A stretch of 26,314 bases of DNA from a virus (taxonomy: Duplodnaviria > Caudoviricetes). Location of the stretch: positions 1 through 26,314 of the IMG/VR virus record IMGVR_UViG_3300023105_000153; one strand, 5' to 3'. A program made the position numbers and the translations under genes. Positions 10,964 through 21,216 of the stretch are shown piece by piece; within the stretch, counting starts at the first letter, position 1, and each line of letters starts with the position of its first letter. The notes beneath the pieces were generated by a model. It was not told the DNA's origin and did not search any database. It saw nothing but the letters and a program-made list of their open reading frames with translations.

Positions 10964-11209
10964 TTACTTACCCTTTTTGACCATGCCACCGCCGCGTAGT
11001 TTAACGCCGCGACCTTTTAATATGTCTTTTTTGGTAACTTTACCGTCACCGGTCAGGTCCGGAAAAGATTTAGACTTGCTTGCCGCACCGCCTTTATTCA
11101 TCTTCTGAACCATGCCACCGCCACGCATCTTCTTAACCGGGGAAGCATTTTTTACTTTTGCTTTTCCAATATTAGAAGAAGCTTGCATCTTTCTAGGACT
11201 CATCGCCAT
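10964..11209 (-). CDS. small basic protein with EF-hand/dockerin-like loop
   Basis: 81 aa, Lys-rich; DLTGDGKVTKKD loop; three [ML]xxGG motifs. Confidence 0.7.
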   Translation of the reverse strand: MAMSPRKMQASSNIGKAKVKNASPVKKMRGGGMVQKMNKGGAASKSKSFPDLTGDGKVTKKDILKGRGVKLRGGGMVKKGK

Positions 11210-11774
11210 TGCTTAGTCTCCTATGTAATTCGTTACGTTTTTCGTAAATCTCAGCGGCATCATAGCTACCAAAATAATTATCGTAATAGCCTAATTTAGC
11301 TATTTTTTGTGCGGCTTCTTGGACCTTAGTTAATCGCTGAATAAATATCATGGCATATTCGGTATCAACTATAGGATCAAAACTGCCGTCATCTATTAGC
11401 TCGTTTGGGTCCTGAAACGGGTGAAAACCCATCAACCATGCGTCTCTGTTAATAAAAAAACCGTTCGCAATGGCTTCATTTAAACCGTCTAAGTATTCAT
11501 GGAAATCATCAGGATTAGGCTGAAAAGCCGTGTCCACAACAATCACCAAATCTACCGCATCATCCCATGTCGATATGACCTGACAGATGTCTTGATAATT
11601 ATCCGGTTCATGCTTAAAAATAACCGAAACCTTATCATCCTTCCATGCTTTTTTTGCATACGGGCATGGAGGCAACCCGTTGAATTCTTTACTCTTTTTC
11701 TCAAGAGCGTATTTTGACCAAGCTTTTATTTCGCTTATTATTTCCTTTTCTTGGCCAACTAAAAACTGGTGCAT
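11193..11774 (-). CDS. hypothetical protein, DUF1415-like
   Basis: 193 aa; PCPYAK near the N-terminus and MGFHP...MIFIQR resemble the CPFA...FHP pattern recalled for DUF1415. Confidence 0.55.
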   Translation of the reverse strand: MHQFLVGQEKEIISEIKAWSKYALEKKSKEFNGLPPCPYAKKAWKDDKVSVIFKHEPDNYQDICQVISTWDDAVDLVIVVDTAFQPNPDDFHEYLDGLNEAIANGFFINRDAWLMGFHPFQDPNELIDDGSFDPIVDTEYAMIFIQRLTKVQEAAQKIAKLGYYDNYFGSYDAAEIYEKRNELHRRLSNGDES

Positions 11775-11776
11775 AC

Positions 11777-12103
11777 CTAAGTATATTGAGTCCGTTTACG
11801 GCGATTAGACAACACTGCGCCACAACCTTTATTTAACTTAGATACCGGCCCACCGTTCGCGGCCCGCATCACCTTTGCGGCTTTAGTATTGGCCACAAAT
11901 TGCTTACCCTTAGAGCCTTCTTTCTTTTTCTTTCTTGCCGTAGAAGCCCGTTGAGACTTACTCAAACTATTGGCTTTGGCTCGTGGCAAACAGCGGTCAG
12001 GGTTCTTCTTGTTCTTCGATGTGCCGCATTCACCTGCAACATTGCCAGAACTGTCTATTCGGACCCAATCTTCGTTTAGCCACTTTTTAAGCTCACCAGC
12101 CAT
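11777..12103 (-). CDS. small basic viral protein (DUF5872-like, C-terminal half)
   Basis: 108 aa LKKWLNEDWV...CG......RCLP..KA..LS..QR..T.RKK...G..GKQFV.N; very basic. Confidence 0.6.
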   Translation of the reverse strand: MAGELKKWLNEDWVRIDSSGNVAGECGTSKNKKNPDRCLPRAKANSLSKSQRASTARKKKKEGSKGKQFVANTKAAKVMRAANGGPVSKLNKGCGAVLSNRRKRTQYT

Positions 12104-12304
12104 TTACTTCTTTTTCCTCTTAGACCCTTTGGCATAATTAGGGTCCTTGCAATACTTAGAAGCGGCTAAATTAGCGTAAGCACTTGGATACTTGTCAAAA
12201 GTTCGTTTAGCCCATGCTTTACCCGCGGCGCAAATCTTATTTGATTTTGCTTCGCCGCCCTTGGCCATCTTTACAACGGTGCCTTGTTTAACTCGAGCTA
12301 CCAT
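12104..12304 (-). CDS. small basic viral protein (PSAY motif; DUF5872-like, N-terminal half)
   Basis: 66 aa KAWAKRTFDKYPSAYANLAASKYCK; MAKGG motif. Confidence 0.6.
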   Translation of the reverse strand: MVARVKQGTVVKMAKGGEAKSNKICAAGKAWAKRTFDKYPSAYANLAASKYCKDPNYAKGSKRKKK

Positions 12305-12582
12305 TTTTTACAACTCCAGTATCTAGCACTAAACTTGTCTTTAGCCGTATCGCAATTGTGCCTAGCTCTGAAACTTTTTCTTCTGGCGGGCTGATCCTTC
12401 TTTATAGTCATGTTCGGATCGCCAAACCGTACTAGCTTAATGTCCTCACCTTTTTTAGCTAATACAGCAAATTTTTTATTTTTGCCCGGAGTTCTTTTAG
12501 GTTTATTAAAACCAGCAAAAGTCTCCCCTCTATATTTAATTTTTCCCGAAGGAGTTCTGGTAACATCTTTGGCAGAGCTCAT
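12298..12582 (-). CDS. small basic conserved viral protein
   Basis: 94 aa KKFAV...LVRFGDPNM.IKK..P.RRKSFRARHNC...K.SARYWSCKKW, a motif recalled from many aquatic viruses; function unknown. Confidence 0.7.
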   Translation of the reverse strand: MSSAKDVTRTPSGKIKYRGETFAGFNKPKRTPGKNKKFAVLAKKGEDIKLVRFGDPNMTIKKDQPARRKSFRARHNCDTAKDKFSARYWSCKKW

Positions 12583-13765: not shown

Positions 13766-14245
13766 TTAAACAGCGGCTGAGAACGGTGTAGCTTCTGTGC
13801 CGGTAGCGGCTTGACGAATGACCACAGAAAATTTACCGGAATAAACGTCCTGAAGTTCAATTTGGCCGCCAAGAATACCGCCTGTGGTCGAACCATCAAG
13901 CGTAATCGTGTCAGAAGCCGCCACAGTTTCAAAGATAGAAGCGGTGTTGCCGCCATCGTTTGCAACGATAGCTACACCAGCCATGGTGTCATCAGAGCTT
14001 GCTACCTGAATAATATAATCATTCGAGGTTACAGTGGTTTTTACAAAAAACTTGTAGATATTACCTGTTCCTGTAGCCGCAGGAAGAGTAACAGTAGCCC
14101 CACTAGCAACGTCCAGAAGCATTGTGCGACCAGCGTGGTTAGCAGAAGTGAGAGTTACGTCAGCGTCTACAGTTACGAGAGAGCCGGAACCATTAATGAA
14201 GCCATTAGTGCTTGTTACCGGACCTGAAAAAGTGGTTGAAGCCAT
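13766..14245 (-). CDS. probable capsid decoration/fibre protein
   Basis: Start MASTTFSGPV at 14245 (RBS AAGAGGT), 159 aa; TVTLPAATGTG..YKF, DTITLDGSTTGG, ATPFSAAV. Confidence 0.7.
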   Translation of the reverse strand: MASTTFSGPVTSTNGFINGSGSLVTVDADVTLTSANHAGRTMLLDVASGATVTLPAATGTGNIYKFFVKTTVTSNDYIIQVASSDDTMAGVAIVANDGGNTASIFETVAASDTITLDGSTTGGILGGQIELQDVYSGKFSVVIRQAATGTEATPFSAAV

Positions 14246-14252
14246 TAGAATT

Positions 14253-14333
14253 ACCTCTTGCACAAGGTTTGGTTTCGTAGTCTGTGCAACGTCAGGCGGG
14301 CAAGAACCTGTCTACGAAACTAATTGGTGCCCA
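14253..14333 (-). ncRNA. putative structured cis-regulatory leader RNA (two stems + two pseudoknots)
   Basis: P1 GTTTCGTAG/CTACGAAAC (9 bp); P2 CAGG/CCTG; 5' GGGCA pairs with TGCCC in the P2 loop; internal TTGCACA pairs with TGTGCAA at the RBS edge. Confidence 0.6.
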
Positions 14334-14339
14334 AATTTA

Positions 14340-14368
14340 ACTATACCCCAAAAAAGAAAAGGCGGCAA
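14340..14368 (-). promoter_or_regulatory. sigma70-type promoter overlapping the capsid terminator
   Basis: Minus strand TTGCCG (14368-14363) - 17 nt - TATAGT (14345-14340); predicted start near 14333. Confidence 0.55.
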
Positions 14369-14379
14369 ACGCCGCCTTT
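14350..14379 (-). terminator. intrinsic terminator after major capsid gene
   Basis: Minus strand AAAGGCGGC-GTTT-GCCGCCTTT followed by TCTTTTTT, about 20 nt after the capsid stop. Confidence 0.85.
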
Positions 14380-14398
14380 CCCCATCTCAGATAAGAGA

Positions 14399-15307
14399 TT
14401 ACGCGGCTCCGGGAGTACCGAAAACGGCTCTCCAATCAGATACACCAAAGGAGTACCTTTCACGAGCCTTGAAGCGCATATTGCCGGTGTCAAAGTCACC
14501 TTCCATTGCAGTCTTAATAGGAGTGCGCTGGAAGAGTTTGAAACCATTAGGAGCGTCTGTCTTTATGAAGTACGCATCAGTGTCAGTCAAGAAATGATTG
14601 ACCACTGCGCCGTCTGGGATCATTCCCATGGACTTCATAGCGTTCAGATCGTTGTCTGCAGTGCCGGGACGCAGGTTGGAGTTGATAACCCTTTCTGCAA
14701 TAAACTGCAGTTCTTTTGGAATTATCAGCTTCATGCCGCGTACAGCAATCTTCAGACCACGCTCATCAGTCAAACTAGCAATGTCAATCAGCATCTGCTC
14801 AAGAGAAGTCTCATTGAGGTCAGCGGCAGTTGACAGCTGGTTACGCTGGTTTCCGCTCAACGAAGGGTGAGCAGATGAACACAGAGCGGCTCCATCACCA
14901 ACTGGGTAGTTGGTATCAAAAGCATTGTTAAGTACAGAAGCGGCCTTAACCTGCTTAGTCTGAGACATTGAACGTGCCAGAGCACGTGTGTAACGTCCCG
15001 CCAAACGGTCGTAGAGGTTATCCTCAACAGCTTCTTCCGTGATGCTAAACGCAAGAGAGATAGTCTCGTGCGTGTAACGAGCAGTGTAAGTTTCCTGCGC
15101 GTCGTCATAAGTAATGGCTCCACCCTCGGATTTAACCGGAGCAGATCCAAAACCAGACAGCATCTGTTCTTCCTCAAACGCACGATCAGAGGACTCTTCG
15201 TCGAAAATTTCGGCGTGTTCTCTATCGTAACGATCGTATTCCATCCCGAACAAGGCATTTAGTCCGGGTTCTAGCTCTTTCGCTAATTGAGCGCGAGAAA
15301 TAGCCAT
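14399..15307 (-). CDS. major capsid protein
   Basis: 302 aa MAISRAQLAKELEPGLNALFG.EY...EEEQMLSGFG.AP.K.EG...L.IP.ELQF.A.R...DFDTGNMRFKARERYSFG.SDWR; follows scaffold/head genes and is followed by a strong terminator. Confidence 0.85.
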   Translation of the reverse strand: MAISRAQLAKELEPGLNALFGMEYDRYDREHAEIFDEESSDRAFEEEQMLSGFGSAPVKSEGGAITYDDAQETYTARYTHETISLAFSITEEAVEDNLYDRLAGRYTRALARSMSQTKQVKAASVLNNAFDTNYPVGDGAALCSSAHPSLSGNQRNQLSTAADLNETSLEQMLIDIASLTDERGLKIAVRGMKLIIPKELQFIAERVINSNLRPGTADNDLNAMKSMGMIPDGAVVNHFLTDTDAYFIKTDAPNGFKLFQRTPIKTAMEGDFDTGNMRFKARERYSFGVSDWRAVFGTPGAA

Positions 15308-15319
15308 GGTTAAACCCCC

Positions 15320-15970
15320 TTAAATGCCGGTGGAATCCGCAGTGGTCTGAGAATCAAACCTGCGAGTTCCAGCGTTGAAATGTGCGTTCAGACGTACCAT
15401 CAGCGGTATACCTGCGGCGGTATAATCGCTGTTAGAAGCATCGTCCATAATCCCAACAATGCGCAAAGGCAGAGTTGCTGTAGTGTTTACAGAAGAAACG
15501 GACAGTGCTCCACTTGCTACGCCAGTATTGGACGAACCACTACGGGCAGACGTACCGAGAGATGCATTTGCAAACACAGTTGCAAGTGCAGTAGCGCGGT
15601 CTGTCAATGAAGCGTCTGAAGCTACTTTAAAGAGTTGATTTGGGTTGTCAGCCACATACGCCTTTACAGGGTAGTTTGTGTCTACGCTGACTGAACCCGA
15701 ACCGGGCCAATAGTTAAGCCAAACCGGTTTCTTTTGAACCGAATCATGGTATTCGACACCCATCAGAACACCCAATGCCTGAGTAGTACCACCGGCAGTA
15801 TCGCCAGCCTGATCAATTACTCCAGCCGCCAAAGGAACGACTATGGAATACTGATAAATAGCATTGGTGTTGTTAGAGGCAATTTCATACTGGGTAACAC
15901 CAGTAGTGTTTGCACCGCTACCAACTAGCCCGATAGGACGAAGACCGTAGGCAGTTGATTGATTTGCCAT
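15320..15970 (-). CDS. head protein (probable capsid cement/decoration)
   Basis: 216 aa MAN...YGLRP...GVLMGVEY...AYVADNP..LF...TATLPLRIVG; strong RBS AAGGAG; immediately before the capsid gene. Confidence 0.65.
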   Translation of the reverse strand: MANQSTAYGLRPIGLVGSGANTTGVTQYEIASNNTNAIYQYSIVVPLAAGVIDQAGDTAGGTTQALGVLMGVEYHDSVQKKPVWLNYWPGSGSVSVDTNYPVKAYVADNPNQLFKVASDASLTDRATALATVFANASLGTSARSGSSNTGVASGALSVSSVNTTATLPLRIVGIMDDASNSDYTAAGIPLMVRLNAHFNAGTRRFDSQTTADSTGI

Positions 15971-15997: not shown

Positions 15998-16489
15998 CTA
16001 CTGTTTACGTGGGCCACCAAAAGTTACACGAGATTGACGATCAGGTTTAGTAATCGTCATTGTATTATGAGCATTTTCTCGCATCATATCCTGATCAACG
16101 GCTTCCATTAGATCTTGGCTCTTTTCACGGAAATACTGCGTCCGCTCTGCAACCGTTTCTACTGGAAGTCTTGCGAGAATCAAACCTCCAACGCCAAAAA
16201 CACCTTCAAATCTACCTGAATCAATCACCGGAGCTTCAAAATCAGGATATTCGTCAGCGCGAACTAACTCATAACCTTCTCTCATTCGAGCAGAAATGTT
16301 TTTACGGTCATCAAAACCGCGCACTTCAGCCCTTATCCAACGGTGTATGTACCCTTCGGGTGCAGGTGGTGCATCTAACGCAGAGGGGGGAGCCCAAGGC
16401 TTACGCCTTTGCTCTTTCTCCCTAGAATTTTTTGCGCGAGGAGAACGATCAATACCCTCAAATCCTGTTTGTTCAGTTTTCTTGGTCAT
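15998..16489 (-). CDS. conserved head-module protein
   Basis: 163 aa WAPPSALDAPPAPEGY.HRWIR...REGYELVRA.EYP...VGGLILAR.P.E....R..YF; between scaffold and capsid genes. Confidence 0.7.
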   Translation of the reverse strand: MTKKTEQTGFEGIDRSPRAKNSREKEQRRKPWAPPSALDAPPAPEGYIHRWIRAEVRGFDDRKNISARMREGYELVRADEYPDFEAPVIDSGRFEGVFGVGGLILARLPVETVAERTQYFREKSQDLMEAVDQDMMRENAHNTMTITKPDRQSRVTFGGPRKQ

Positions 16490-21012: not shown

Positions 21013-21216
21013 TCAAAAAATTCCTTGAAACCGTTGTTTTACCCGAACTATCGGGCTAAATCCTTTTACCGGACCTCCCTGTGACATCTTCTTCGGCGAC
21101 TTCCCTGCCTTGCTAAGAGCTATAGCGACTGCTTGATCCTGCTTATAGCCCTCATCCCGCAACTTACTTATGTTGGAGCTAATGGTCTTTTGACCTTTAC
21201 CTGTTTTTAGTGGCAT
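21013..21216 (-). CDS. small basic phage protein
   Basis: 67 aa MPLK.G...TISSNI..L..EG...[12 protein letters not shown], a common phage motif; MSQGGPV. Confidence 0.75.

Follow-up and report, generated by a model that had tools for sequence, protein, structure and literature searches.

An uncatalogued double-pseudoknot RNA, sister to the orphan Mu-gpT-DE motif, precedes predicted capsid-decoration genes in tailed phages

Introduction

Mu-gpT-DE (Rfam RF03012) is an orphan RNA motif of 53 positions, the function of which has never been established. It reportedly originates from the 2017 224-motif paper, the main text of which does not name it. The Rfam drawing consists of two stems, and a three-way junction is not drawn. 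The name was found in one work in the literature, on CaCoFold, the accessible part of which reports two extra covarying pairs.

Several other classes of RNA offer points of comparison for a compact, pseudoknotted element close to a ribosome-binding site (RBS). A pseudoknot set against the Shine-Dalgarno (SD) sequence is the layout of several translational riboswitches, among them SAM-II/V and preQ1. The xrRNAs and HDV-like RNAs are compact three-way junctions or double pseudoknots with a paired 5′ end. HDV-like and theta ribozymes have a nested double-pseudoknot helix order with a catalytic C, and the hammerhead ribozyme has a CUGANGA plus GAAA core with three stems. In phage T4, gp32 is a nucleic-acid-binding protein, and the gene 32 operator is a simple pseudoknot. 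Precedents for translational autoregulation in phages include this T4 pseudoknot (PMC10690425) and the P22 scaffolding protein (bioRxiv 10.1101/2022.12.13.520362), as far as the available text of each source describes them.

Proteins that decorate capsids are also relevant here. According to the accessible portions of two structural reports, the Pa223 spike forms a homotrimer and is held at threefold axes through its 41 N-terminal residues (bioRxiv 10.1101/2025.06.11.659172), and the cement proteins of GP4, KHP30 and Pam1 are trimers at threefold axes, with the Pam1 protein's N-terminal loop lying under the neighbouring monomer and contacting the capsid E-loop (PMC9698820).

Results

The window (the whole stretch of DNA analysed, 26,314 nucleotides) covers part of a tailed phage genome (46% completeness), in which the head genes for terminase, portal and major capsid protein lie on the minus strand. 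The capsid protein shares 71.5% identity with that of HTVC023P and 68–72% with the capsid proteins of the group DSL-LC04, HTVC023P, 023Pt_psg01 and HTVC027P, and it matches Pfam PF25209 (56 bits) and Mu-like_gpT, PF10124 (25.4 bits, with a cutoff of 20.1). Between the capsid stop (14399) and the ATG of the next gene (14245) stand, in order, a terminator-like hairpin, a TATAGT hexamer and the RNA element (Table 1). This gap (14246–14398, 153 nt) is the longest among the hand-picked main ORFs, as the original prediction had held.

Table 1. Coordinates of the leader RNA and its flanking features in the window
Feature	Position	Strand	Description
Major capsid protein gene, HTVC023P-type	14399..15307	-	Upstream neighbour of the leader; phrog_371, E 4.9e-20
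Intrinsic-terminator-like hairpin and U run	14350..14379	-	14345-14400 folds at -26.7 kcal/mol, z -4.52
Predicted -10 promoter hexamer TATAGT	14340..14345	-	Transcript start predicted at ~14333-14332
PK1	14332-14328/14302-14298	-	5 bp; 5′ strand 14328..14332 pairs with the P2 loop
P1	14320-14312/14280-14272	-	9 bp, perfect complement
P2	14310-14307/14296-14293	-	4 bp (CAGG/CCUG), perfect complement
PK2	14289-14283/14264-14258	-	7 bp; 3′ strand 14258..14264 pairs with the loop closed by the lone pair
Core three-way junction (P1, P2, lone pair C14291-G14282)	14272..14320	-	Unpaired A14311, A14292, A14281
Shine-Dalgarno-like GAGGT	14253..14257	-	Directly 3′ of PK2
159-aa gene (MASTTFSGPV...), predicted capsid spike/decoration protein	13766..14245	-	AlphaFold2 model pLDDT 74.5

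The hairpin and U run likely end the capsid transcript. Of 132 adjacent cases, 128 have a hairpin with a U run between the capsid stop and the leader, a count that carries no shuffle control. The TATAGT hexamer finishes at 14340 and PK1 starts 8 nt on, in keeping with the earlier claim that the element begins where its promoter predicts the transcript start. A −10-like hexamer is located 5–11 nt ahead of the element in 71 of 91 double-pseudoknot leaders and in 56 of 62 leaders of the short form described below; in shuffled upstream sequence, the same spacing occurs at frequencies of 0.40 and 0.38, respectively. Because −10-like hexamers and terminator-like hairpins precede the leaders, the element very likely makes up the entire 5′ untranslated region of a gene with a promoter of its own. 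Salt-marsh metatranscriptome contigs cover the element in some runs, one record (X3) stopping at 14324 and contigs of relatives (X4, X6, X7) extending upstream, although by their nature such contigs reveal neither start nor strand.

Other features of the window were recorded in passing. Right after the decoration gene, at 13756-13664 on the minus strand and in the second-longest gap, is a 30-codon, very Lys-rich ORF (MMGKLNNKSGAKKPVKK...) that is too short for the 60-aa ORF cutoff. A cluster of small, strongly basic ORFs with no assigned function (phrog_7595, 23735, 27331) at 10964-12582 and 21013-21216, also on the minus strand, offers candidates for DNA- or RNA-binding virion proteins. At ~16030-15985 (minus strand), where ORF 15998-16489 ends, the final codons (RVTFGG) seem by eye to be conserved at the DNA level in relatives. 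In the window, these codons are followed by the stop and then by a partly complementary stretch, also noted by eye, which could form a second cis hairpin before gene 15320-15970.

The four pairings originally proposed for the element (P1, P2, PK1 and PK2) are all perfect Watson–Crick complements. A fifth pairing, absent from that proposal, is the lone pair C14291-G14282. The GAC triplets occupy 14312-14310, 14293-14291 and 14282-14280; P1 ends in a pair between the first triplet's G and the third triplet's C, and P2 in a pair between the first triplet's C and the second triplet's G. A further pair, between the second triplet's C and the third triplet's G, is possible and closes the 8-nt loop from which PK2 is formed. 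The three GACs are indeed present, but because this lone pair joins the second and third, they are the three strands of a single three-way junction rather than the marks of three separate helix junctions, as had been thought. Each strand has two bases paired and one A unpaired. The relation of PK2 to the RBS also needs rewording: the helix abuts the core GAGGT (14257-14253), and the overlap previously described amounts to the preceding A(s). The full helix order is PK1, P1, P2, PK1′, P2′, PK2, P1′, PK2′. With a descriptor for the junction plus two pseudoknots, the window scores 33, a value that none of 1000 dinucleotide shuffles reaches; two of the 1000 pass the class filter at all. Plain nested folding of the element gives no signal compared with shuffles (z −0.49 and −1.03), which is to be expected with half of the pairs in pseudoknots.

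Conservation was followed in two sets of sequences. Alignment A1 holds 96 distinct sequences of the window's subtype, collected with a search pattern that fixed P2 and most of PK2. In it, 98.2% of cells pair, compared with 25–40% in slid controls, and two-sided change is found in six of nine P1 pairs and one of seven PK2 pairs, with a C-G to U-A change in PK2 in 26 of the 96. Since the pattern had fixed P2 and most of PK2 beforehand, a second set was collected by context, from protein searches covering 240 loci and nine cultured phages. It retains 166 distinct leaders for which a MAxTTFxGP-type start could be recognised and no less than 110 nt of upstream sequence was available; loci that were duplicated, truncated or lacked such a start were dropped. 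When parsed, the 166 divide into 93 double-pseudoknot leaders, 67 with three GACs and no pseudoknots, four classed as other and two as none. Of 830 shuffles, 5 pass the double-pseudoknot filter, none of them with two or more GACs.

The context-selected set is the one in which covariation of P2 and PK2 was judged. Because the parser that located its junctions rewards pairing, the following comparison is partly circular: own-partner duplexes of at least five pairs form for PK2 in 87 of 90 leaders, compared with 4.6% of 6440 cross-subtype swaps, and for PK1 in 85 of 90, compared with 3.3% of 6646. Between subtypes, the loop sequences are wholly different, and each is still complementary to its own partner. 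The second pair of P2 is A-U in 41 sequences, U-A in 27, G-C in 19, C-G in 2 and U-G in 1, these being numbers of sequences rather than of independent events. The helices are kept by compensatory change across relatives, and with them the topology that the original prediction had drawn from one sequence.

The junction itself reads GAC/GAC/GAC in 83 of 90 long-form leaders and has pair-keeping variants in the other seven: AAC/GAC/GAT in four, and GAT/AAC/GAC, TAC/GAC/GAA and GAC/GAT/AAC, all with the three pairs and three As. The parser demanded these pairs and As, and the informative part is that the variants are found in the right slot with P1 and PK1 intact; PK2 was not recovered by the parser in two of the variant leaders (L241 and L243). 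The leader of phage 023Pt_psg01 contains no GAC (AAC/GAT/AAT), yet it has a 10-bp P1, a 7-bp PK1 and a 5-bp PK2. Across subtypes, there is no sequence conservation outside the junction. PK2 overlaps the SD match in 60 of 86 double-pseudoknot leaders, abuts it in 13 and is separated from it by 1–5 nt in 13. The double-pseudoknot form is a large, uncatalogued branch, with an estimated ~630 IMG/VR stretches for the window's subtype and at least 12 loop subtypes overall. Carriers include the pelagiphages HTVC023P and HTVC027P, and the hosts of cultured carriers are Pelagibacter, Roseobacter and a gammaproteobacterium.

By its covariance model, RF03012 does not include the window element: a search of the window with the Rfam models gave no match at the gathering threshold and none to RF03012 up to an E value of 10 (the RF03012 threshold is 49 bits). 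No Rfam match was obtained either for 20 loci spanning other subtypes. RF03012 matches of 54.9–69.7 bits do occur in 7 of 20 related loci, in the same slot. The view that the element belongs to no named family is therefore half right; the long form has no Rfam family, but it shares its junction core, position and downstream gene with Mu-gpT-DE. The three GACs of the two RNAs agree in order and spacing class (P1, hairpin P2, and a 7–9-nt loop closed by a lone C-G), and both RNAs are found downstream of a Mu-like gpT capsid gene and ahead of a MAxTTFxGP gene, with the SD at the 3′ edge. The stems are different. P1 of Mu-gpT-DE is a 4-bp CCUG/CAGG helix whose 3′ strand runs into AGGAG, whereas the outer stem of the window form is a 9-bp P1 of variable sequence, and CAGG/CCUG is instead its short inner P2. 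The window form adds two pseudoknots absent from Mu-gpT-DE, and the SD, which PK2 covers in the long form, lies under P1 in the short form, which is Mu-gpT-DE.

For the short form, with P1 over the SD, 66 leaders were selected as having AGG or AAGG after the third GAC, the start codon being 12–15 nt from that A. Pseudoknots give no signal in this form (2.76 and 3.02 for own partners, 2.81 and 2.97 for swapped ones). On a capsid tree of 150 sequences, there are 13 switches between forms, compared with a shuffled mean of 48.9, and both forms are found inside single decoration-protein families. Because they alternate on the tree and within one protein family, the long and short forms look interchangeable from these sequence comparisons, and we read the long form and Mu-gpT-DE as sister forms of one junction. 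The alternative that the two are circular permutations was dropped, as the helix order is identical. Four leaders upstream of the decoration gene (L355, L357, L359, L363) combine a long P1 and PK2 with a 6-bp P2 hairpin like the inner stem of Mu-gpT-DE, in what looks like an intermediate form. A model built from 96 window-type sequences has three matches in 26 loci (L022, L279, L006) and misses HTVC023P-type and short forms, so that topology and position, rather than sequence score, unify the clan; a blastn search of cultured phages with the element returned only two weak matches (E 0.9). The double-pseudoknot form is an uncatalogued sister of a known orphan motif. No description of it was found in the published literature, although the supplement of PMC5737381 or the 10,006 viral candidate RNAs of PMC10690425 may hold it.

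The 159-aa product of the gene behind the leader has no Pfam or PHROG match, and PDB sequence searches with the decoration and capsid proteins gave nothing credible. Its model best matches a T4 gp9/gp10-like domain (Z 10.3, rmsd 2.5, 100 aligned), followed by the Pa223 capsid-spike knob (Z 10.2, rmsd 2.6, 100 aligned), and a Foldseek E value of 3.5e-5 accompanies these matches. A second protein family behind the leader (model pLDDT 69.5) matches the cement proteins of Pam1 (Z 12.6, rmsd 2.4, 115 aligned), KHP40 (Z 11.3) and GP4 (Z 10.9), and the annotators of DSL-LC04 labelled its protein a cement protein. Both folded families are predicted to resemble trimeric capsid spike or cement proteins, with the trimer suggested by the fold matches. 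Among 169 complete proteins there are 17 body clusters, and the first ~16 residues, the N-terminal arm, are common to all. Throughout the clan, these residues in the protein and the junction in the RNA are the only conserved parts. The window protein is acidic (pI 4.1; 5 K/R and 13 D/E), as are its relatives (median pI 4.2; pI >7 in 1 of 169), and the first 16 residues have a net charge of 0 in 110 of 169. Judged by composition, an acidic decoration protein would be a poor RNA-binding surface.

The leader follows this downstream decoration gene and not the capsid gene. All readable matches to the window-subtype pattern precede a MAxTTFxGP-type gene: 117/117 in IMG/VR (120 in total) and 113/113 in metagenomes (116 in total), three matches in each being too short, which gives 230/230 pooled. 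The pattern has two matches in 185,579 GTDB genomes, and because both are short MAG contigs with a capsid gene and a MAxTTFxGP-type gene, there is no sign of cellular use. Among the 243 leaders whose locus shows a capsid gene, 32 are parted from it by 375–1917 nt and other genes, and the RNA stays with the downstream gene; HTVC027P likewise has its leader beside the downstream gene, with other genes between it and the capsid gene. The suggested control of a post-capsid operon survives as a real, conserved 5′ leader by the RBS, but one tied to a single decoration gene. A protein-binding element, suggested with capsid autoregulation as the example, is still the likeliest of the first readings, but the capsid protein is not the obvious regulated target.

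Four more distant cultured or complete phages, with a post-capsid gene that has no arm, have no junction. Arm genes without the junction are few (2 "none" and 4 "other" of 166; L271, L289). In 2.6 Mb of loci, recognised arm-gene leaders account for 295 of 321 triple-GAC junction matches; about half of the remaining 26 are leaders missed by the start filter, and the rest are scattered and unconserved. In L246 and L249, a triple GAC stands ahead of the gene upstream of the capsid gene; it lacks conservation and was taken as chance. A hairpin with only two GACs, facing each other (an A-A internal loop), comes before arm-type genes in L271 (upstream of 2842) and L247 (downstream of the capsid gene), and may be a pared-down, two-way version of the junction. 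In L016, L017 and L078, the capsid gene is immediately followed by a gene with another start (MANPHFQN, MPTHFLSG) and a different leader that has no triple GAC.

Discussion

The leader described here is real and conserved, and it likely controls the amount of a predicted capsid-surface protein that is made in a major group of aquatic phages. Control in cis of translation initiation is probable. In both forms the SD lies under a helix, but not the same one (PK2 for the long form, P1 for the short), which supports repression. The reading that we prefer, although we hold it with somewhat less than even confidence, is that the leader represses translation of the decoration gene, holding the RBS while bound by a protein of phage assembly, for which the unassembled decoration trimer is the likeliest candidate. 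The existence of any protein effector is an even call, and its identity as the decoration gene's own product is rather doubtful.

A promoter of its own behind the capsid terminator would uncouple the decoration gene from capsid synthesis, and a gene so uncoupled would require feedback if its output is to fit the number of capsid sites. The folded leader would hinder initiation at the SD, and its near-threefold junction could be read by a threefold protein surface, that of the N-terminal arms at the trimer base. Capsids would titrate the decoration protein away, freeing the message. What shifts the state of the leader is the least certain part of this mechanism. A threefold RNA and a modelled trimer with conserved arms would fit feedback by unassembled protein. 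A bolder version, which we consider unlikely, is that the RNA with its threefold core mimics the capsid docking site and that the trimer stops its own synthesis via the arms that anchor it to the head. The acidic product speaks against autoregulation, and capsid anchoring is a sufficient explanation for conservation of the arm. Because the RNA and the arm share ancestry, their co-occurrence is not independent evidence. Folding alone (A-minor docking) could account for the conservation of the G-C pairs next to the single As, and adjacency to the SD could result from genome compactness.

The window RNA is like an autogenous operator in that it lies in the 5′ leader of one gene and travels with that gene. 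It shares with the T4 gene 32 leader, as portrayed in the available text of PMC10690425, the character of a pseudoknotted 5′ leader of a phage gene and a proposed site of product feedback. It differs in its acidic, predicted structural product, in having a three-way junction and two pseudoknots, and in that feedback is so far a proposal.

It is possible, if unlikely, that the leader is a ligand-free structural cap, a knot at the first transcribed bases that shields the 5′ end from nucleases and fixes the translation rate, with the As of the GACs docked on G-C pairs. The start of PK1 (long form) or P1 (short form) within 5–11 nt of the −10 hexamer in most leaders is consistent with such a cap, as are the restriction of cross-subtype conservation to the junction and the acidic gene product, and an alternative anti-SD helix is not apparent. 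The xrRNAs, which block a 5′–3′ exoribonuclease with a ring-like fold, also combine compactness with a paired 5′ end, but the window RNA has a different helix order, no identified ring residues and no Rfam match, and unlike xrRNAs and HDV-like RNAs its place is the predicted start of a DNA-phage transcript. Contact with the SD is not required of a stabiliser, but unrelated helices make it in the two forms, and a stabiliser would be expected ahead of other late genes, whereas triple-GAC matches concentrate at arm-gene leaders. We think it distinctly unlikely that a different protein (the capsid protein or procapsid, a small basic head-tail protein, or a host factor) reads the leader and couples decoration to head assembly. 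The capsid protein is the most conserved neighbour (84–100%) while decoration bodies are freely swapped, and several very basic small ORFs, including the Lys-rich one, lie just downstream; however, the carriers' hosts differ, such that a host factor would have to be something universal.

A phage riboswitch, in which the three As at a near-threefold pocket would bind an ion or small molecule and close PK2 (or P1) over the SD, is quite improbable. Its layout resembles that of translational riboswitches, the unpaired As are invariant, it would work across hosts, and an expression-platform feature is present, with PK2 overlapping or abutting the SD match in 73 of 86 leaders. However, riboswitches usually accompany several types of gene for the metabolism or transport of their ligand, the RNA occurs ahead of one structural gene type and never a metabolic or other one, both genome matches are phage contigs, very few conserved unpaired bases are available for a pocket, and no Rfam riboswitch matches. 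That the leader is a self-cleaving ribozyme, or a processing signal by which read-through capsid transcripts release the decoration message, is very improbable indeed. The double pseudoknot and small size are reminiscent of HDV-like ribozymes, and in relatives some RNA-library contigs extend into the leader from the capsid side. The helix order differs from that of HDV-like ribozymes, however, with no catalytic residue identified and no Rfam match, and the symmetric three-A core offers no candidate catalytic base. The hammerhead core is absent, as noted from the outset; the window reads CUGACGU, these bases vary across subtypes, and Rfam gives no match. Moreover, the short form fills the same slot without either pseudoknot, and the messages are already split by terminator and promoter. 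The riboswitch-like and ribozyme-like readings of the original prediction find little to build on, given that three As and their flanking pairs are all that is conserved and that no cellular context was found.

Overall, an orphan "downstream element" of capsid genes is recast as the 5′ leader of capsid-decoration genes, and a precise structural hypothesis is gained, that of a symmetric junction with three unpaired As. The compact, symmetric knot is an attractive target for structure determination, and its function is directly testable because cultured carriers exist. HTVC023P-type pelagiphages are considered to be among the most abundant ocean viruses, according to the accessible text of PMC9599517. 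If mimicry of the capsid site is correct, Mu-gpT-DE would be the minimal member of a clan used by some of the most abundant phages of the sea, and if autoregulation is correct, the leader would represent a new way of matching the numbers of virion proteins.
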